Shown in pieces: positions 2,720 through 45,249 of a DNA stretch of 59,402 nt. Source of the stretch: a virus. A program made the position numbers and the translations under genes. Within the stretch, counting starts at the first letter, position 1. Each line of letters opens with the position of its first letter. The stretch lies in IMG/VR virus record IMGVR_UViG_3300045988_086105; one strand, 5' to 3'. The notes beneath the pieces are model-generated. The model was given only the letters and a program-made list of their open reading frames with translations. It had not been told where the DNA came from and did not search any database.

Positions 2720-3111
2720 ACAGAATCCTCCGCAAGCCTCGTGTATTTCCATGCAGTTATTGCATTGGCATTCTGACAACTTATTGAGGTTTTCCCGTTG
2801 TTAAATACATAGGGAATCCCATTTCCAGAAAAAGCAAAATATCTTTCCAGCCATTCTCCATGCGGTTTGTTTCTCACAAAAACTTTCGCATCTACAGGAA
2901 TCTTCGTCCAATCCGTTTCTTCACAATCTTTCTCTGCCCAGTCTTTCGCATTTTCAAAACAGTCTACATTCTTTCCTGTTTGAAAAACGCAGGCAAAACA
3001 AGACATTTCTTTGCAAGCTCGTACTTGTTTTGTGTTTTTATCAATTCCCATTGAGTCCTCGGAAAGGAAAATATCAACAAGCTGTTCCGCATACTTCTCT
3101 CGGTTCTTCAT
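2716..3111 (-). CDS. Hypothetical Cys-rich protein (131 aa)
   Basis: Track ORF with ATGA overlap to the upstream SLT gene. No recognisable motif. Confidence 0.55.
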   Translation of the reverse strand: MKNREKYAEQLVDIFLSEDSMGIDKNTKQVRACKEMSCFACVFQTGKNVDCFENAKDWAEKDCEETDWTKIPVDAKVFVRNKPHGEWLERYFAFSGNGIPYVFNNGKTSISCQNANAITAWKYTRLAEDSV

Positions 3112-3590
3112 TTTCCATGTCTCCTTTCTAATTCTTCGCTCCTGGTTAATATCCCATCAGCGTATTTGCTTACTTGTCCACTTTTAGATTTTTTAACGGC
3201 GTTTTCTTCGCCGTGATAAACCATCAATACCGTGGACACCTCTCCATATTCTTGAAACAGCTCTGCCAGATAGTCAGTTCCTACATGGATATTTCCGTCA
3301 ATATCGTAGATGTCGGTAACTTCCAGCCGTTCCATTCTTTCCGTATGCCACCTGTCTGAAATCTGCATCAATCCCTTGCAACTTCCATTTTTCGCATCTG
3401 GATTTCCGGCAGACTCCCGTTCAATTATCGCCATAATAAGTTCCGGACAAATATTGTATTCTTCTCCATACTTATTGCATGTTTCCTGTATTTCCTCCGG
3501 CAGTTCTGAAATATCTTCTTCCGCATACGCTGTCATGGAAAAGAAAAGCGACATTATAATAGGAAGAAACAGCTTTATTGTCGTTCTCAT
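3108..3590 (-). CDS. Secreted lytic transglycosylase (SLT domain)
   Basis: Signal-peptide-like N-terminus (MRTTIKLFLPIIMSLFFSMTAYA) and an SLT catalytic motif (ERESAGNPDAKNGSCKGLMQI). Confidence 0.8.
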   Translation of the reverse strand: MRTTIKLFLPIIMSLFFSMTAYAEEDISELPEEIQETCNKYGEEYNICPELIMAIIERESAGNPDAKNGSCKGLMQISDRWHTERMERLEVTDIYDIDGNIHVGTDYLAELFQEYGEVSTVLMVYHGEENAVKKSKSGQVSKYADGILTRSEELERRHGK

Positions 3591-4354
3591 GCACTTTCCT
3601 CCTCGATAGGTTCAATGCCAATCTCTTTCAGCTTGTTATACAAGAACATTCTGCCTTTTTGTGTCCAGACGGTAAGTGGCTTTGTTCCGGTACTTCCGTC
3701 ATGCTTAACATAATCATTTGTCTTTGTTCTCACATAACCCTTACCCTGGAAGTCTGCGTACAATATCCACTGGTCACCGACTTTTCTCTGAATGCCGGCC
3801 GTTCTTAAAACTGAATTGAACCTCACCGCACTCATTCCGTAGTCCTGTGCAATCTGTGTGACTGTCATACAGTCGTTAGATGAAAGAATCTTGTCCACAT
3901 AGTCAACTTTAGGTGTCATATCGGTAATCACGGCATCCATCTGTTGCACCGTGGTCTGCAACTGCTTAACCTCTTCCTCTTTCTGCGCAAGCATCCTCTG
4001 TGCTTCGACAACTGCAAGCGCAATCAATTCCTGTCCGGTAGGGATATGTGCCTTGATGGCATCTTCCATTTCGTGGAAACGGTCAATGTACTTTGCCGTA
4101 AATTCTGTTCCCCTAACTCCGGTCATCTTATGTGCTATGAACTCGCAACCTTTCTTCGTTACCAGGTAGCAAGGCTGTGTCTTGTTTTGGCTGTTCTGAT
4201 AGGTACTTTCTGTAAAGAAATCGGACTGGGAAATATTCCCCTGTCCTAATTGCTCATAATATCTTCTGATATCCTTAAGCAAATCGTTATGCTGTTTCCC
4301 TACCATTTCCGCTACTTCCACGGAAGATATTGTTTTCTGTTCTAATTCGTTCAT
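3587..4354 (-). CDS. Rha-family regulatory protein fused to a KilAC/ANT antirepressor C-terminal domain
   Basis: N-terminus SSVEVAEMVGKQHNDLLKDIRRY is Rha-like. C-terminus DKILSSNDCMTVTQIAQDYGMSAVRFNSVL is KilAC-like. Confidence 0.8.
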   Translation of the reverse strand: MNELEQKTISSVEVAEMVGKQHNDLLKDIRRYYEQLGQGNISQSDFFTESTYQNSQNKTQPCYLVTKKGCEFIAHKMTGVRGTEFTAKYIDRFHEMEDAIKAHIPTGQELIALAVVEAQRMLAQKEEEVKQLQTTVQQMDAVITDMTPKVDYVDKILSSNDCMTVTQIAQDYGMSAVRFNSVLRTAGIQRKVGDQWILYADFQGKGYVRTKTNDYVKHDGSTGTKPLTVWTQKGRMFLYNKLKEIGIEPIEEESA

Positions 4355-5231: not shown

Positions 5232-5414
5232 CTATTTTTTAATTGCCAGTAGTGCCATTGAGAGAGAATCGAGGATTTTACACCGTTGCTGTATTTCTTC
5301 GATTCTCTTCTCATCTTTACAATATTCTTCTGCAATAATAAGTGCCATGCACTCTACGCTGTCGGACAAAGTCATGCTAGTACCATCAATTTTATATCCA
5401 TATGGCTTTTTCAT
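5232..5414 (-). CDS. Small protein at the Cro position (60 aa)
   Basis: Internal ATG 5414 with a GAGGTGAG RBS. First gene downstream of a consensus leftward promoter, divergent from the XRE repressor gene. Confidence 0.5.
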   Translation of the reverse strand: MKKPYGYKIDGTSMTLSDSVECMALIIAEEYCKDEKRIEEIQQRCKILDSLSMALLAIKK

Positions 5415-5448
5415 ATTCTCACCTCTCTTCTGTTGACCTTGTAAACAC

Positions 5449-5477
5449 ATTATAGTCCCTGAGAAACTTTATGTCAA
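5449..5477 (-). promoter_or_regulatory. Consensus sigma70-type promoter (TTGACA-17-TATAAT) reading leftward
   Basis: -35 is the reverse complement of 5472-5477 and -10 the reverse complement of 5449-5454, with exactly 17 nt between them. It overlaps a TGTTGAC/GTCAACA operator repeat. Confidence 0.7.
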
Positions 5478-5487
5478 CATATTTTTG

Positions 5488-5516
5488 TTGACTTGGGGAC
5501 TTTTTTGATGTATATT
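5488..5516 (+). promoter_or_regulatory. Sigma70-type promoter (TTGACT-17-TATATT) for the XRE gene
   Basis: -35 at 5488-5493 and -10 at 5511-5516. The inverted repeat GTCAACA (5473-79) / TGTTGAC (5486-92) overlaps the -35, and a third TGTTGAC lies at 5431-37. Confidence 0.7.
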
Positions 5517-5538
5517 ATTAGTGAAAGGAGGGATGTAA

Positions 5539-5907
5539 ATGAATGAGAGAATCAAATCTTTGCGAAAGTATTTGAATATGACACAAGATGATTTTTCAAA
5601 GCAAATCGGCTTGTCAAGAAACTATATTGCGCAAGTTGAAATAGGCACGAAGACACCATCTGAAAGAACCATATCTGATATTTGCAGAGAGTTTGATGTA
5701 AACGAAGAATGGCTCCGAAATGGAAGTGGTGAAATGTTTGTTCAGAAATCAAAGGATGAACAAATCTCGGAAATGCTCGGAGAAATTCAAAAGTCCGGTG
5801 AAGATACATTTAAGCACCGTCTTGTATCCGCACTGGCAAACTTGGACGAAGATGGATGGAACGCTTTGGAAAAGTTGATTGATTCAATCGCAAAAAAGAA
5901 CGAATAA
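5539..5907 (+). CDS. XRE-family HTH transcriptional regulator (122 aa)
   Basis: LRKYLNMTQDDFSKQIGLSRNYIAQVEIGTKTPSERTISDICREF is a canonical HTH_3 motif. GGAGGG RBS. Confidence 0.85.
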   Translation: MNERIKSLRKYLNMTQDDFSKQIGLSRNYIAQVEIGTKTPSERTISDICREFDVNEEWLRNGSGEMFVQKSKDEQISEMLGEIQKSGEDTFKHRLVSALANLDEDGWNALEKLIDSIAKKNE

Positions 5908-5947
5908 GAAAAAGCCAAGGGCAATGCGCAAGTCCTTGGCTCTTTTC
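5908..5947. terminator. Bidirectional rho-independent terminator
   Basis: Stem GCCAAGG (5914-20) / CCTTGGC (5934-40), flanked by an A-run upstream and a T-run downstream. Confidence 0.7.
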
Positions 5948-5949
5948 CT

Positions 5950-6057
5950 TTATCTAAGTAATTTTTTAACATAGGCATAAATGCACTCTAACCAATGTAA
6001 ATTATCGCAAGCATTGATTAGCTTTGTGATTTCCTCTTTGTAATCTTCTTTCCCCAT
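5950..6057 (-). CDS. 35-aa micro-protein under a LexA-box promoter (MGKEDYKEEITKLINACDNLHWLECIYAYVKKLLR)
   Basis: ATG 6057 follows an AGGGGGTG RBS and the stop is at 5950. The gene sits between the SOS promoter and the bidirectional terminator. Confidence 0.45.
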   Translation of the reverse strand: MGKEDYKEEITKLINACDNLHWLECIYAYVKKLLR

Positions 6058-6100
6058 AGTACACCCCCTAATCTTTCCGCACTTGGTAGCGATACATCAC

Positions 6101-6129
6101 ATTATAGAACATATGTTCTAAACAATCAA
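6101..6129 (-). promoter_or_regulatory. Sigma70-type promoter (TTGATT-17-TATAAT) with a Cheo-type LexA box in the spacer
   Basis: -35 is the reverse complement of 6124-6129 and -10 the reverse complement of 6101-6106. The palindrome TAGAACATATGTTCTA (6105-6120) contains GAAC-N4-GTTC. Confidence 0.65.
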
Positions 6130-6134
6130 TATAT

Positions 6135-6163
6135 TTGACGCACGTTTTTTATTGTTGTAAAAT
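6135..6163 (+). promoter_or_regulatory. Sigma70-type promoter (TTGACG-17-TAAAAT) for the CI-like gene
   Basis: -35 at 6135-6140 and -10 at 6158-6163, with a 17-nt spacer. It lies back to back with the LexA-box promoter. Confidence 0.55.
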
Positions 6164-6275
6164 ATCAACAAAAAGAGGACGGTGAAAACGCCAATAAACA
6201 CCGCCCTCGCCAGAACTTGAATCCCTTGCCAACAGGGATGCTATCATTGTAATCGAGATAAAGGGGACGAGAAAC

Positions 6276-7067
6276 ATGATTGAAAAAGAATTGGTTAAAA
6301 GAATTTCGACAAAACTCATCGTTGATAAAGAAAATTTTATGCGAAGTTTTCGTTGGAATTTGGGAAAATTTATCGAAACACCGGAAATTACAATCAAACA
6401 GCTTTCTGAAGAATCTGGAATTCCATACGCAACTCTTAATTCTGTCTTGTACGGAAATTCTAGCGATGTCAAATTATCCACAGCAATCTCTTTGTCAAAA
6501 GCATTGGGAATCAGCATTGACGAACTTGTCGGTGCCGGAACCATGGAAGATAAAATGATGGAATCGGTAAAAATATGCCGGGCACTTCCAGAACATTCCT
6601 TATATCTTGTTCGTTATTTGATTCGCCATCAGGGGAAAATATATTCTGAATTAGGTTATAAGCAGAAATACATTTCTGTTATCAAGCCACAGCTTATCAA
6701 CGGTATAATTGCTACTACCAATGCTGTAGAGCCTATGTGCGTGGATAATCTGCCAGAAGATGTCAAATCGAAGGCTTACATTGGGATTCAAATCCCATGC
6801 GATTACTACATGCCTTTTTATTTGCCTGGAGAAATTCTTTTGCTTGCCGCTGACCGGGAGGAGCAAGGCGGGGAGCGTTGTGTGGTTACCAGTAATGGAG
6901 GAATCTATATTGTTGTAAAAATCCATGTGTTTGAAAATGGAAAAATTGTCTGGAAGTACGTTCCTCTAATGTCTCCAGAAAGTATTCTTCCAGACGGAAT
7001 TATTGATGAAAAAATTGGATATGTGGTAGGTTTTTTAGATGTTAATGGTGTCTGGGGAATACGATAA
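6276..7067 (+). CDS. CI/LexA-like repressor: XRE HTH plus an S24-like C-terminal domain with a substituted catalytic Ser
   Basis: HTH: IKQLSEESGIPYATLNSVLYGNSSDVKLSTAISLSKALGISIDELVG. The C-terminus follows the S24 pattern (GEILLLAADRE..GGERCVVTSNGGIYIVVKI), but CDYYMP stands where GDSMxP is expected. Confidence 0.75.
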   Translation: MIEKELVKRISTKLIVDKENFMRSFRWNLGKFIETPEITIKQLSEESGIPYATLNSVLYGNSSDVKLSTAISLSKALGISIDELVGAGTMEDKMMESVKICRALPEHSLYLVRYLIRHQGKIYSELGYKQKYISVIKPQLINGIIATTNAVEPMCVDNLPEDVKSKAYIGIQIPCDYYMPFYLPGEILLLAADREEQGGERCVVTSNGGIYIVVKIHVFENGKIVWKYVPLMSPESILPDGIIDEKIGYVVGFLDVNGVWGIR

Positions 7068-7547
7068 TTTCCCAGGTTTTTCTAAAAAATAATACTTTCT
7101 AAAATCTATATCAGAAAGATTTATACTGCATAATTCACTTACACGAACACCTGTATCTAATGAAAATTGAAATATTGCTAAATCTCTTGCATTGGCACAA
7201 TTTATTTTCAGCAATTCAATTTCCTCATCAGATAAAGGTTTTTTAATACATTTTTTATACTTAACAGGTTCAATAAGATCCATAGGATTTTCTGTAAGTT
7301 TTTTATGCTTTGTCAGATACGAAAATACAGAAGATAAATATTTTCTTTTTGATTCCATAGTAGAATCGCTTACATTATAAATTTTCTTATACTTTGCCAT
7401 AAATGAAAGAATGTCATCAGTAGTAATGGCACTCAATTCTTTATGGCAAAAATCACATAATTGATAAACTACACGTTTATATTGCCCTACGGTACTTTCA
7501 GATTTACCACTACTAATTTTACCAGTTTTAAAATAGGCAAATTATTC
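7035..7547 (-). pseudogene. 3'-truncated tyrosine recombinase (integrase) remnant
   Basis: The frame is open from about 7547 with no ATG. A SAM-like N-terminal domain (GKSESTVGQYKRVVYQLCDFC) is followed by the catalytic domain up to the first Arg box (DTGVRVSEL). It then stops at 7035, overlapping the 3' end of the CI-like gene. The HxxR and Tyr motifs are missing. Confidence 0.7.
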
Positions 7548-37455: not shown

Positions 37456-37488
37456 CTCCAACAGTAACAGGGGTAGTGGGCTTTTTTT
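37451..37488 (+). terminator. Intrinsic terminator overlapping the 3' end of leader copy 2
   Basis: CGCTACTCC (37451-59) / GGGGTAGTG (37470-78), then GGC and T7 (37482-88). Located 45 nt before the Bro start. Confidence 0.6.
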
Positions 37489-37532
37489 ATGCTCTTCTAC
37501 TCTTTCACAAATCATTCCGGGAGGTATTAGAG

Positions 37533-38165
37533 ATGAACGAATTAGAAGTATTTAGCAACAATGAATTTGGTGAAGTAAGAACTGTTGTGATTGATGGAAA
37601 ACCTTATTTTGTGGCAAGTGATATTGCAAAAGCGTTGTGTTACAAGAACACAAGCAAGGCAATTAAAGACCATTGTAGGTATGTAGCAAAACGTTATATA
37701 CCGCATCCTCAAAGCGAGAATAAGACGATAGAGGTAAATGTGATTCCAGAGGGAGATATGTATAGGCTTATCTCACATAGTGAATTGCCATCTGCTGAAA
37801 AATTTGAAAGTTGGATATTTGATGAGGTTCTACCATCCATTCGCAAAACCGGAACATATTCTGTGGAGCAGTCTACACCGAATGTACCTATGACCTATCG
37901 TGATGCCGTGGCACAACTTTTGAAAAGCCTTGACCGGGAAGAAGAATTGAAAGCACAACTTGATACTTCCAAGGACTGGTACTCTATCAAACGTGTAGCG
38001 GCTCTAAATGGTGTATCATGGAAACGTTTTGACTGGCGAAAGCTGAAAAATGTCGGAAAAGAAATGGGATATGAAGTTAAAAAGATATTCGATGCAAACT
38101 ACGGAGAAGTGAACACTTATCACAAGTCCGTATGGGAAAAAGTGTATCCGCAGTATGAATTGTAA
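37533..38165 (+). CDS. Bro-N domain antirepressor-type protein (start moved to ATG 37533)
   Basis: GGGAGG RBS. VFSNNEFGEVRTVVIDGKPYFVASDIAKALCYKNTSKAIKDHC is Bro-N-like. Confidence 0.75.
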   Translation: MNELEVFSNNEFGEVRTVVIDGKPYFVASDIAKALCYKNTSKAIKDHCRYVAKRYIPHPQSENKTIEVNVIPEGDMYRLISHSELPSAEKFESWIFDEVLPSIRKTGTYSVEQSTPNVPMTYRDAVAQLLKSLDREEELKAQLDTSKDWYSIKRVAALNGVSWKRFDWRKLKNVGKEMGYEVKKIFDANYGEVNTYHKSVWEKVYPQYEL

Positions 38166-38224: not shown

Positions 38225-38899
38225 ATGAACGAATTAGTAAAGGTAAATTTTGAAACACAGACAGTATCCGCAAGAGAATTGCATGAGCAGTTAGGCATTG
38301 AAAAGAGATTCAGCGCATGGTTTGAAACTAACAGCCAAGGTTTTGTTGAGGGAGAAGATTTTACTGCTGCGTACCTCAAGGTACAGAGCAATCAGTACGG
38401 TGGAGAAAAGGAACTCCAAGATTACAACATGACTGTTGATATGGCAAAGCACTTGTGCCTTATGAGTAAGACAGAAAAAGGAAAACAGTGCCGCCAGTAC
38501 CTTATCGACCTTGAAAAGGCATGGAACACACCGGAGCAGATTATGGCACGGGCACTGGATATTGCACATAAGACCATTAACAGCCTTAAGGAAGAAAATC
38601 TTGTCATGAAGCCGAAAGCAGAATATTTCGATGAACTGGTGGAAAGAAATCTTTTGACCAGTTTCCGCACCACGGCAAAGGAATTTGGAATAAAAGAAAG
38701 TGCGCTTATCGGATGGCTCATTGAGAACAAATACATTTACCGTGACCAAAAAAACAAGCTATGCGCTTATGCCGCACCAAAGACTGACGGACTGTTTGAT
38801 GAAAAAGAATATACCAGTAAGCACTCCACCCACGCAGGAACGCAGACTTTGATTACTCCAAAGGGCAGAGAAACTTTTAGAATACTGATGAAAATTTAA
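38225..38899 (+). CDS. AntA/AntB plus KilAC antirepressor
   Basis: N-terminus [19 protein letters not shown] (AntA-like). C-terminus [32 protein letters not shown] (KilAC-like). Confidence 0.75.
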
Positions 38900-39567: not shown

Positions 39568-40245
39568 ATGACGGAACTGGTAAACGTTGAGGGAACGGAT
39601 TTATATATAAAAAATTATAATAACAAAATGGTTGTAAGTTTCGATGATATATGCAGTGTGCATAAATGCGATAAGAAAAGGCTTTCTAGGCATTTTGAAA
39701 GAAAAAGAAGATATTTCATAAAAGATATAGATTTTTTTGAGGTTACAAGAAAAGAGTTAGGCGACCTGGTGTCGCCTAACGAAAAAATAGTAGGAAATCC
39801 CTACCTCAAAACATATTTATTCACTGAGACAGGTTATCTTATGATTGTAAAATGCCTTGATGATGATATAGCATGGAACATACAAAGACAGCTTGTTAAT
39901 GGATATTTTGCAGGAAAGTTCCAAAGCAAGGAACAAAATGATATTCCGCCGGAACTAAGAATCCCGTTACAAATGGACTGGGCAAAACGCCAGAAATACA
40001 AAATCAATGTTATCTGTGAAAACTTTGATTGCACTTATGCCAAGTACATTTCCCGAATCATCGGCTTAATCGGAGAAACCTATGATTTTGATTTTGCAAT
40101 GAAAAAATATGAGGAACTGACCGGTAAGAAACCCAAATATGCCATGGATGCCATTGGATATTTCCCAGAACTACAGAAAATGGCTACCGATATTATCATG
40201 TTTGATTACCAGGATATGCTAAAAAGGTCGGGACTGAATCCTTAA
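39568..40245 (+). CDS. ORF6N/KilA-N-related antirepressor-type protein
   Basis: VVSFDDICSVHKCDKKRLSRHFERKRRYFIKDIDFFEV...YLFTETGYLMIVKCLDDDIAW fits the ORF6N pattern. Confidence 0.65.
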   Translation: MTELVNVEGTDLYIKNYNNKMVVSFDDICSVHKCDKKRLSRHFERKRRYFIKDIDFFEVTRKELGDLVSPNEKIVGNPYLKTYLFTETGYLMIVKCLDDDIAWNIQRQLVNGYFAGKFQSKEQNDIPPELRIPLQMDWAKRQKYKINVICENFDCTYAKYISRIIGLIGETYDFDFAMKKYEELTGKKPKYAMDAIGYFPELQKMATDIIMFDYQDMLKRSGLNP

Positions 40246-44118: not shown

Positions 44119-45249
44119 TTAAATTACCTTTAACGATTCTGCAACCATGTCCATTTCTTTCTGTTTTTGTTCATCTTTCGTATCGACATAAAGGTTCATG
44201 GTAATACCTATATTTGAATGACCTAAAATTGTTTGCAGTGTTTTTGGCATCATACCCGCCTCTATACATCTTGTTGCAAAGGTGTGCCGCAAAACGTGCA
44301 TAGCAAATTGATGTATTCCTGCCTTTTTGCACACTTTAAAAAGCATAGTGTCGTAAGTGCTATTTTTTACTGGCGTACCTTTTTTGCAAAGAAAAACTGT
44401 GTCGTTCCATTCCATAGAAATACATGGAAACGATTGATTCTTCTTCTTTTGCAATTTTAGAATTTTTATTGCCTCATCAGTTAATGGAATTGTTCTATAC
44501 CCAGATTTACTTTTTGGTTCTCCAGTTCTCCATTCTTTAGTGGAATGTCTATATTCTGTTGTCCTAGAAATTGCCATGACCTTTTTGTTAAAATCAATAT
44601 CTTTCCATTGTAGTCCTACCATTTCCCCTGTTCGCAAACCGGTCTGTAATATAAAAAGATATTGATATTCATAGGGACATCCTATTATTTCATTACAAAA
44701 TTTTTTTTGTTCTTCAATGCTAAGTGCCACTTTTTTTTCCGATGGTAAACCTATATCAGATTTAACCAACTTATTACACGGATTTTTTAGTATTATGTCA
44801 TTTTGGTACGCATAATCAAGCATATTATAAAGTGCAATCCTTGCTTGATAAATTGTAGTTGTTTTGTACCCCTCATCAGCCATATTATTCATAATCTGCT
44901 GGCAGTGTATTGTGTTAACATCTTTTAATAATTTGTTTCCAATAACGGGAGCAATGTTTCTGTTATACCTTTCACTATAGTTTCTTAAAGTATTTGGTCT
45001 TACTACTCTTGATTTTATCGAAATCCAATAATTATACCATGCCTGCACAAGCATATCTTTTGGAAAATCAATATTGCTATGAGAATCATAATATTGACTA
45101 TCCGCAAGCCATTTTTGGCATTCTTTTAACTTTTTAAATAATTTCTGAATACGTTTGCCATTTTTTGAAGTGTATCTTCCAACATAATAGCCATCTTTTC
45201 TTTGGCTTATTCCTTGTCCAAGTTCCTTTCCTTTTAAGTCTTTTCCCAA
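44119..45249 (-). CDS. int: Tyrosine integrase (intact)
   Basis: Arg box LRTGEMVGLQWKDIDF, HVLRHTFATR, GHSNIGITMNLYVD (H-x-x-R...H...Y). Confidence 0.9.
   Translation of the reverse strand: MGKDLKGKELGQGISQRKDGYYVGRYTSKNGKRIQKLFKKLKECQKWLADSQYYDSHSNIDFPKDMLVQAWYNYWISIKSRVVRPNTLRNYSERYNRNIAPVIGNKLLKDVNTIHCQQIMNNMADEGYKTTTIYQARIALYNMLDYAYQNDIILKNPCNKLVKSDIGLPSEKKVALSIEEQKKFCNEIIGCPYEYQYLFILQTGLRTGEMVGLQWKDIDFNKKVMAISRTTEYRHSTKEWRTGEPKSKSGYRTIPLTDEAIKILKLQKKKNQSFPCISMEWNDTVFLCKKGTPVKNSTYDTMLFKVCKKAGIHQFAMHVLRHTFATRCIEAGMMPKTLQTILGHSNIGITMNLYVDTKDEQKQKEMDMVAESLKVI

Follow-up and report, generated by a model that had tools for sequence, protein, structure and literature searches.

How does DNA damage induce a prophage whose repressors are without a working autocleavage site? 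The question is raised by a 59,402-nt stretch of viral DNA (IMG/VR record IMGVR_UViG_3300045988_086105; hereafter the window), which comes from a temperate phage of gut Lachnospiraceae, and within it by a 35-residue micro-open reading frame (micro-ORF) whose promoter encloses a LexA box. The micro-ORF lies between the convergent gene of a 122-residue XRE-family repressor and the divergent gene of a 263-residue regulator. Because the phage repressors found here have no working autocleavage site, a LexA-controlled antirepressor is the best reading of induction, and we judge it moderately probable, from the sequences of related loci and from analogy with known systems, that the micro-ORF belongs to an SOS-controlled micro-antirepressor module whose target is the 122-residue repressor.

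The LexA box and the small gene behind it

The elements of the micro-ORF, with their positions in the window and strand (plus, rightward; minus, leftward), are as follows.

6105-6120: LexA (Cheo-type SOS) box TAGAACATATGTTCTA, a perfect 16-nt palindrome
6129-6124 and 6106-6101, minus strand: -35 (TTGATT) and -10 (TATAAT) boxes of the micro-ORF promoter, with a 17-nt spacer (promoter scan)
6062-6069, minus strand: ribosome-binding site (RBS) AGGGGGTG of the micro-ORF (read from the sequence)
5950-6057, minus strand: micro-ORF, 35 residues, ATG start, MGKEDYKEEITKLINACDNLHWLECIYAYVKKLLR (ORF list)
5909-5945: bidirectional terminator, hairpin GCCAAGG/CCTTGGC with flanking A- and T-runs, separating the micro-ORF from the convergent repressor gene

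A preliminary description of the window had reported an SOS box in the spacer of this leftward promoter and, behind it, an RBS-led ORF of 35 codons ended by a bidirectional terminator, and all of these elements were confirmed at the same positions. Within the 16-nt palindrome, GAACATATGTTC at 6107-6118 fits GAAC-N4-GTT[CT], the SOS-box consensus for Bacillus and Clostridia (PMC4234289). The box fills the 17-nt spacer and shares the first two bases of the -10 box, so that the operator overlaps the core promoter. Although GAAC-N4-GTTC occurs only once in the 59.4-kb window, its count alone is not above chance (0.64 expected per window; at least one in 46 of 100 shuffles), and the box is meaningful because of its position and conservation rather than its mere presence. 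Of 87 related loci, 86 retained the GAAC and GTTC half-sites, although their peptides fall into at least 12 alleles less than 40% identical to one another; the relatives differ at the centre (T/C) and the flank (A/T) of the box, with the half-sites invariant.

An unbiased scan of IMG/VR with the pattern TTG-N8-GAAC-N4-GTTC-TATAAT gave at least 120 matches, and among the 120 listed the first RBS-led ORF was a member of the peptide family in at least 88 (63 distinct sequences). Other listed matches preceded the genes of RecA (Pfam 1e-109) and of two LexA_DNA_bind proteins, which marks the design as a genuine SOS promoter in this group of hosts. Host LexA would be expected to repress the micro-ORF promoter. 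One viral contig (L177, IMG/VR 2841770359_000002) carries, behind its own SOS box TTGACACTGTGGAACATATGTTCTATAAT, a 77-residue ORF with a LexA DNA-binding domain (Pfam 6e-18) and nothing else, whose product might mimic LexA without being cleavable, or compete with it.

The micro-ORF starts about 40 nt downstream of its promoter, and its homologues in relatives are called by gene callers. At least 12 alleles of 35-48 residues share the pattern E-E-Y-+-x-x-I-x-x-[ML]-[LI]-x-x-I-x-[DE]-N-x-x-L-x-x-[IV]-Y-x-[FV]-[VI], with Y6 and L23 invariant in the family alignment, and the peptide looks, by eye, like a two-helix hairpin. Because frame, RBS and residue pattern persist while the DNA diverges beyond alignment, we regard the micro-ORF as a real gene. 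A profile of the alleles retrieved 74 protein clusters of 29-75 residues from 5.8 billion proteins, none of which carried a Pfam domain or a meaningful name.

Whether the peptide or its transcript is the active product bears directly on this reading, as the micro-ORF promoter points at the repressor gene's 3' end, and the SOS transcript might itself lower the repressor through convergent transcription or antisense readthrough, leaving the peptide incidental. Action as RNA was an earlier hypothesis for aimX of Bacillus phages, and in some alleles (L055) the two genes have abutting stop codons with no terminator between them. In the window, however, the genes are parted by a good terminator (leftward RNA: fold -18.5 kcal/mol, z -2.8, followed by a U-run), whose 13-nt loop caused it to be overlooked by a simple hairpin scanner; a similar hairpin occupies the same position in Blautia prophages, and an Rfam search of 5300-7200 gave only spurious miRNA matches on this hairpin. 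Moreover, an ORF of 29-50 codons, its RBS and its residue pattern are retained in more than 60 DNA-divergent alleles, and in Bacillus start-to-stop and recoded alleles identified the protein, not the RNA, as active (bioRxiv 10.1101/2025.11.23.689978). We consider an RNA mechanism improbable here.

Two variants of the arrangement were also observed. In L132-137, two paralogous micro-ORFs stand in tandem with an 87-residue ORF between them (L132:2599-2715 and 3001-3117), and the GAAC-N4-GTTC box TTGAACAAAAGTTCAA (L132, at 3532) lies in the repressor-cro intergenic region, not upstream of the peptides. In several other alleles (L052:2233-2577 and similar), the repressor gene and the micro-ORF are parted by an inserted gene for a protein of 114-145 residues; the C-terminal tail of this protein is hydrophobic by eye, so that it may be anchored in the membrane, and it may be a superinfection-exclusion moron.

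The convergent repressor as the probable partner of the peptide

On the left of the terminator lies what appears to be the genetic switch of the phage.

5539-5907, plus strand: XRE-family repressor, 122 residues (Pfam HTH_19 5e-15)
5477 to 5449, leftward: early promoter, TTGACA-17-TATAAT (promoter scan, 12/12, against 10/12 for its rightward partner)
5488-5516, rightward: repressor promoter, TTGACT-17-TATATT (promoter scan, 10/12)
5473-5492: palindrome GTCAACA-N6-TGTTGAC, covering both -35 boxes of the switch (sequence and repeat search)
5431-5437: third copy of TGTTGAC, just beyond the 5449-5516 switch

The 122-residue gene sits between the micro-ORF and the early genes, divergent from the early promoter and convergent with the micro-ORF, and the palindrome at 5473-5492 is a candidate operator of the switch. 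This position beside the early promoter places the 122-residue protein, rather than the 263-residue protein, in the cI slot. Its AlphaFold model (predicted local distance difference test, pLDDT, 86.5) comprises a helix-turn-helix (HTH) domain at residues 1-61 and C-terminal helices at 72-85, 91-100 and 104-120, without a cleavage domain. Foldseek matched the model to AimC (9iaq), to the phi106 repressor-AimX complex (9sf2) and to SinR-SinI; by sequence, the match to 9sf2_A was confined to the HTH (E 2.6e-5). At least 1159 relatives were found, some of them named 'Repressor protein CI' in their sources, and the family is present in thousands of metagenome contigs. The 122-residue protein is thus likely, judging from position, fold and family, to be the master (cI/AimC-like) repressor and the target of the peptide.

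These fold matches point to the arbitrium phages of Bacillus (phi106, phiW23, BMBtp14), in which aimX ORFs of 29-80 residues lie downstream of a LexA site and convergent with aimC (Kabel et al., bioRxiv 10.1101/2025.11.23.689978). AimC is a short, non-cleavable HTH repressor of 80-140 residues (bioRxiv 10.1101/2025.11.23.689978; PDB 9iaq, 9sf2), and AimX binds its C-terminal oligomerisation domain and blocks dimerisation and DNA binding, the protein and not an antisense RNA being active (bioRxiv 10.1101/2025.11.23.689978). Against this range of sizes, a 35-residue antirepressor is not unusually small, contrary to what the preliminary description had supposed.

To compare loci, 80 of 228 IMG/VR relatives of the 263-residue gene were taken, and loci from Logan, JGI and metagenome-assembled genomes were added. 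A recurring order emerged, with a small repressor gene on the plus strand, the micro-ORF on the minus strand and a 263-family gene on the plus strand. Across the lineages examined the constant neighbour of the micro-ORF was a convergent cI-like XRE repressor of 99-266 residues, divergent from cro-like or early genes. Among the promoter-scan matches listed, a convergent XRE-type repressor was detected downstream in 52 of 78 loci, and in most of the other 26 an XRE motif of typical form was recognised by eye at the end of the downstream ORF, in some cases past one intervening gene. A very common Blautia prophage (L145-152) illustrates the pairing: it has no 263-family gene, its 120-residue repressor is 62% identical to that of the window, and it encodes a 32-residue peptide homologue, MDYKKEIIEMVEKCTNNHWIEVIYIFVKRLIG, behind a promoter that is followed by the canonical ACGAACTAATGTTCGG.

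Evidence for a specific partnership came from 35 distinct repressor/peptide pairs of the 122-residue family. Peptide identity tracked that of the repressor C-terminal domain (r 0.92; partial r 0.91; permutation p 0.0005) and not that of the HTH domain (r 0.44; partial r 0.00; permutation p 0.48). Among natural pairs with different HTHs on the same C-terminal domain (n = 33), the peptides were 69-100% identical, with all but one value at 91% or above, and among pairs with similar HTHs and different C-terminal domains (n = 11) they were 31-41% identical. This co-variation is what would be predicted if the peptide docks on the repressor's C-terminal domain. Natural chimeric repressors (L083, L100, L112 and L176 compared with L262) join different HTHs to one shared C-terminal domain and are in every case accompanied by a single peptide allele, and the reverse swap also occurs; such chimeras point to a modular exchange of DNA-binding specificity and antirepressor specificity.

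The same data bear on the alternative that the peptide is an SOS-induced effector with some other target, be it host cell division or physiology, LexA or RecA (as a modulator like GIL01 gp7), or excision and replication. Small SOS-induced peptides with other roles are known (SidA, SosA, gp7), and homology gives the peptide no function. Hypervariable alleles that match the C-terminal domain of the adjoining repressor would, however, be odd for a conserved host target; the position of the peptide is fixed beside the repressor in all lineages examined, and by eye it contains no membrane-spanning segment. We regard a target other than the repressor as unlikely.

For the antirepressor module, we propose the following course of events. 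In the lysogen, the 122-residue repressor would close the divergent early lytic promoter, as its position and family suggest, and host LexA on the spacer box would hold the micro-ORF promoter off, as suggested by the sequence of the box, its conservation and the recA and lexA-like parallels. Upon DNA damage, RecA-stimulated cleavage of LexA would release the near-consensus promoter and the 35-residue helical peptide would be made. The peptide would then bind the C-terminal helical (oligomerisation) domain of its cognate repressor, as the co-variation and the AimX-AimC and SinI-SinR systems suggest, and the bound repressor would neither oligomerise nor bind DNA, so that the lytic operon would be derepressed without proteolysis.

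Several observations weigh against this reading. The codons for the repressor C-terminal domain are no more than about 50 bp away from the micro-ORF and, because they adjoin it, recombination breakpoints alone could give the observed co-variation. The peptide had no Pfam match, and its PHROG matches were sub-threshold and to unnamed families only. Its profile found no credible PDB chain, although the AimX complex 9sf2 is in the PDB, and no sequence similarity to AimX or SinI was found. An origin like that of SinI would predict similarity between the peptide and the repressor C-terminus, and the similarity seen was not significant: Smith-Waterman comparison gave z 0.9 for the window pair and reached 4.2 only for the L049 pair, and hhalign gave a probability of 5.6%, with cognate pairs scoring no better than non-cognate ones. 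The lineages L049-51, L132-137 and L142 lack a LexA box at the micro-ORF promoter, and SOS control is therefore not universal. Finally, the first gene of the early operon has no HTH detectable by Pfam and is not recognisable as Cro. A SinI-like decoy was also considered, as FKHRLVSALANLDEDGW in the peptide resembles DYKEEITKLINACDNLHW in the C-terminal helices of the repressor by eye, and it was rejected by these statistics.

The divergent 263-residue regulator and its leader

The other side of the micro-ORF promoter is occupied by a second regulatory gene.

6276-7067, plus strand: 263-residue regulator; HTH about 21-85, two linker helices, LexA/S24-fold beta domain about 132-254
6135-6163, plus strand: promoter of the 263-residue gene, TTGACG-17-TAAAAT (promoter scan)
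6152-6157 and 6166-6171: inverted repeat TTGTTG/CAACAA, flanking the -10 box of this promoter
6170-6275, plus strand: structured 5' leader, with GC-rich hairpin 1 (6177-6206), single-stranded GAACTTGAA and hairpin 2 (6222-6239)

That the promoter of the 263-residue gene stands back to back with that of the micro-ORF, as the preliminary description had noted, proved correct, as did its account of a CI-like protein in which the catalytic serine is replaced in a CDYYMP motif. By sequence, Pfam recognised only an XRE-type HTH, and PDB profile matches were confined to that domain. The AlphaFold model (42 homologues, pLDDT 90) resolved an HTH, two linker helices and a beta domain, and its best PDB matches by Foldseek were lambda CI, LexA, a 186/lambda hybrid repressor, UmuD and signal peptidases (E 1e-5 to 1e-2 for lambda CI, LexA and UmuD). 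A homologue 53% identical to it (P0038) scored 24.4 bits on PF00717 (S24), for which the cut-off is 23.3. Alignment to LexA, CI and UmuD by hhalign gave a sensible register at a probability of 1.6%, which does not amount to a sequence-level S24 assignment; it is from the fold matches and P0038 that we assign the C-terminal domain to the LexA/S24 fold.

The protein thus resembles lambda CI and LexA in its N-terminal HTH, linker and C-terminal S24-fold beta domain, and differs from them in its catalytic residues. An alignment of the S24 active site, proposed as a check in the preliminary description, revealed no Ser nucleophile anywhere in the family: in all 42 aligned members the candidate columns hold D/E/N and Y/F/H/N/K, with D176 or Y177 in the CDYYMP motif of the window protein. 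The Lys on the strand that the preliminary description called retained is K215, which lies one position off LexA K156 in the low-confidence hhalign alignment; across the family this column is K, R or T. No conserved Ala-Gly or Cys-Gly cleavage site was found in the family; in the window protein VGAGT stands at 85-89, where the HTH ends, and the residue that follows Ala at the 87-88 site is G, E, D, C, Q or S across the family. On this evidence from its alignment, the whole family, which numbers at least 128 proteins, is a pseudo-peptidase family in which self-cleavage is not expected.

The preliminary description had taken this protein for the lysogeny repressor, with autocleavage lost and inactivation by the 35-residue peptide in its place. 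The two genes are divergent and have a common 220-bp control region, the protein has a lambda-CI-like architecture without the catalytic Ser, and in several lineages a small HTH gene, the micro-ORF and a 263-family gene are again found together. Yet among the promoter-scan matches listed, 66 peptide-positive loci extended far enough upstream to be scored, and only 8 of these (4 of 47 alleles) had a 263-family gene, which makes the protein probably not the partner of the peptide. It is the other neighbour in the window type, L049-51, L132-137, L142 and L001/2/4, and is entirely absent from L138, L139-141, L143/144 and L145-152, where something else or nothing takes its place. Furthermore, the block from the box to the 263-residue gene is nearly invariant and is joined on its left to many unrelated alleles of micro-ORF and repressor: the 263-residue protein is about 70-100% identical across phages with completely different peptide alleles, a single 263 allele (cluster of at least 85% identity) is paired with at least nine unrelated ones, and the early lytic promoter adjoins the 122-residue gene instead. 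Induction through a LexA-controlled micro-antirepressor, as the preliminary description proposed it, thus remains the best reading of the comparative evidence, while its identification of the 263-residue protein as target or master repressor is very improbable.

The 263-residue protein is rather a lineage-specific, presumably non-cleavable CI-like regulator, and it may exert a second control on the same promoter. All three box-less lineages (L049-51, L132-137, L142) have a 263-family gene, and the four lineages without one (L138/L145-152, L139-141, L143/144) have a perfect or degenerate box. This complementary distribution, drawn from about ten sampled lineages, hints at a dual-input promoter in which LexA reports DNA damage and the 263-residue regulator serves as an SOS-independent lock or trigger that would sense or make contacts through its catalytically dead LexA-fold domain; we put this forward tentatively, as a possibility of rather low probability. 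No shared operator was found among the lineages compared, and the inverted repeat TTGTTG-N8-CAACAA is a doubtful operator for the protein, since it is missing in L049-51, whose protein is 99% identical.

The two-hairpin layout of the leader, with GAACTTGAA or GATTGAAG between the hairpins, recurs in relatives of 32-45% protein identity (L132:2373-2482 and L142:2321-2432, both minus strand; L001:4898-5012, L002:5890-6003, L003:5855-5965 and L004:5890-6003), with stem sequences that differ (per-sequence folds). The leader had no Rfam match, and RNAalifold predicted no pairs on a MAFFT alignment of the leaders, which is not structure-aware. The leader of the family (about 105 nt), in which the stems compensate in a lineage-specific way, might act as a hitherto undescribed cis-regulatory RNA, stabilise the 5' end of the mRNA or serve as a DNA operator.

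Distant chromosomal members of the family (L003, L005-L017) have neither micro-ORF nor LexA box, so that the family extends beyond the phage module. In some non-phage chromosomal loci, the partner divergent from the 263-family gene (L005:5338-5925 and L015:5316-5858, both minus strand) resembles the C-terminal DNA-binding part of Spo0A in its motif GVPAHIKGYQYLREAI, a reading made by eye. Overlapping the 3' end of the 263-residue gene in the window is a truncated tyrosine-integrase fragment of 133 residues (7035-7436, minus strand) that covers only the start of the catalytic domain; related phages have unrelated small genes at this place.

Genome context, known systems and possible meaning for gut prophages

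The window genome is that of a temperate tailed phage transcribed almost entirely leftward, which also encodes terminase, portal, a RecT-like protein and methylases. No close relatives were found in the GenBank phage collection, where matches, to Blautia and C. difficile phages, were at the HTH level only. The early operon behind the 5477-5449 promoter includes Rha/ANT, SLT and AAA genes, and in relatives its first slot is occupied by DUF739 or HTH cro-like genes. The phage also has four large genes of an 'antirepressor-like' kind (Rha+ANT, Bro-N, AntA+ANT, ORF6N), three of which form a rightward-transcribed island within the leftward genome.

44119-45249, minus strand: full-length integrase
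3587-4354, minus strand: antirepressor-like gene
37476-38165, plus strand: antirepressor-like gene
38225-38899, plus strand: antirepressor-like gene
39568-40245, plus strand: antirepressor-like gene

Of the systems compared, AimX-AimC(-AimL) is closest in layout. In both, a very small ORF with a mostly helical product (here by eye) follows a LexA site and runs towards the gene of a short HTH repressor; this repressor lacks an autocleavage domain, and its gene is divergent from the early lytic operon, here a probable one. In both, too, the repressor combines an HTH with a C-terminal helical domain (Foldseek matches of the 122-residue model to 9iaq and 9sf2_A), and a hypervariable antirepressor varies together with its repressor. 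They differ in host, which here is a clostridial one (Lachnospiraceae) rather than Bacillus, and in sequence, as the peptides share no similarity and the repressors are similar over the HTH only. AimR/AimP-like genes were not found adjoining the module, whose neighbour is instead the divergent HTH/pseudo-S24 gene, unrelated genes or nothing, and the LexA box here lies inside the promoter spacer. 

SinI-SinR of Bacillus subtilis (PDB 1b0n) offers a parallel for the proposed contact, a small helical antagonist that would heterodimerise with an XRE-type repressor at the latter's helical oligomerisation domain, and SinR was among the fold matches. SinI is, however, homologous to the C-terminal helices of SinR, for which there is no significant counterpart here, and SinI-SinR is neither phage-borne nor LexA-controlled. 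The 35-residue product, helical-looking by eye, also differs from the Tum, Gifsy, AntC and Sar antirepressors, which are unrelated to it in sequence and fold and comprise about 100-150 residues, Tum and AntC included. What it has in common with 186 Tum, Gifsy GfoA/GfhA (PMC3121763), N15 AntC and SPbeta/phi3T Sar (bioRxiv 10.1101/2025.11.27.690993) is a LexA-repressed antirepressor gene, an uncleaved repressor and induction after LexA cleavage; Sar itself is an intertwined beta-sheet dimer that mimics DNA (bioRxiv 10.1101/2025.11.27.690993). In the TF-smORF modules (transcription factor, TF; small ORF, smORF) of Vibrio and Aeromonas plasmid-like phages, the small-ORF product inactivates cI non-proteolytically and the TF gene is divergent (Silpe et al., Nature 2023, PMC10432266), an arrangement like that of the 263-residue TF gene and the micro-ORF. 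Those small ORFs have no homologues, are specific for their own cI and are SOS-independent, being TF-activated (PMC10432266), whereas the promoter here is near-consensus with a LexA box and most family members have no adjoining TF gene.

Read in this comparative light, the locus would be, on its predicted features, a new and widespread form, unrelated in sequence, of a mechanism recently demonstrated in Bacillus phages. The peptide family is the commonest cargo of SOS-box promoters among the IMG/VR matches listed (at least 88 of 120). If the proposed mechanism is true, unannotated peptides of 29-75 residues would be a main route of DNA-damage induction for Lachnospiraceae prophages such as those of Blautia, hosts that are among the commonest human-gut bacteria and whose DNA can be damaged in the gut by antibiotics, inflammation and genotoxins. 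The block of repressor oligomerisation typical of AimX and SinI would then reach beyond the Bacillus arbitrium phages into another bacterial class, and prophage 'inducibility' predicted from a repressor S24 domain would be wrong for these phages, their key induction gene being overlooked or wrongly labelled by gene callers and annotation pipelines. With its many allele pairs and domain swaps, nature supplies a ready panel for the specificity of peptide and repressor across this family.

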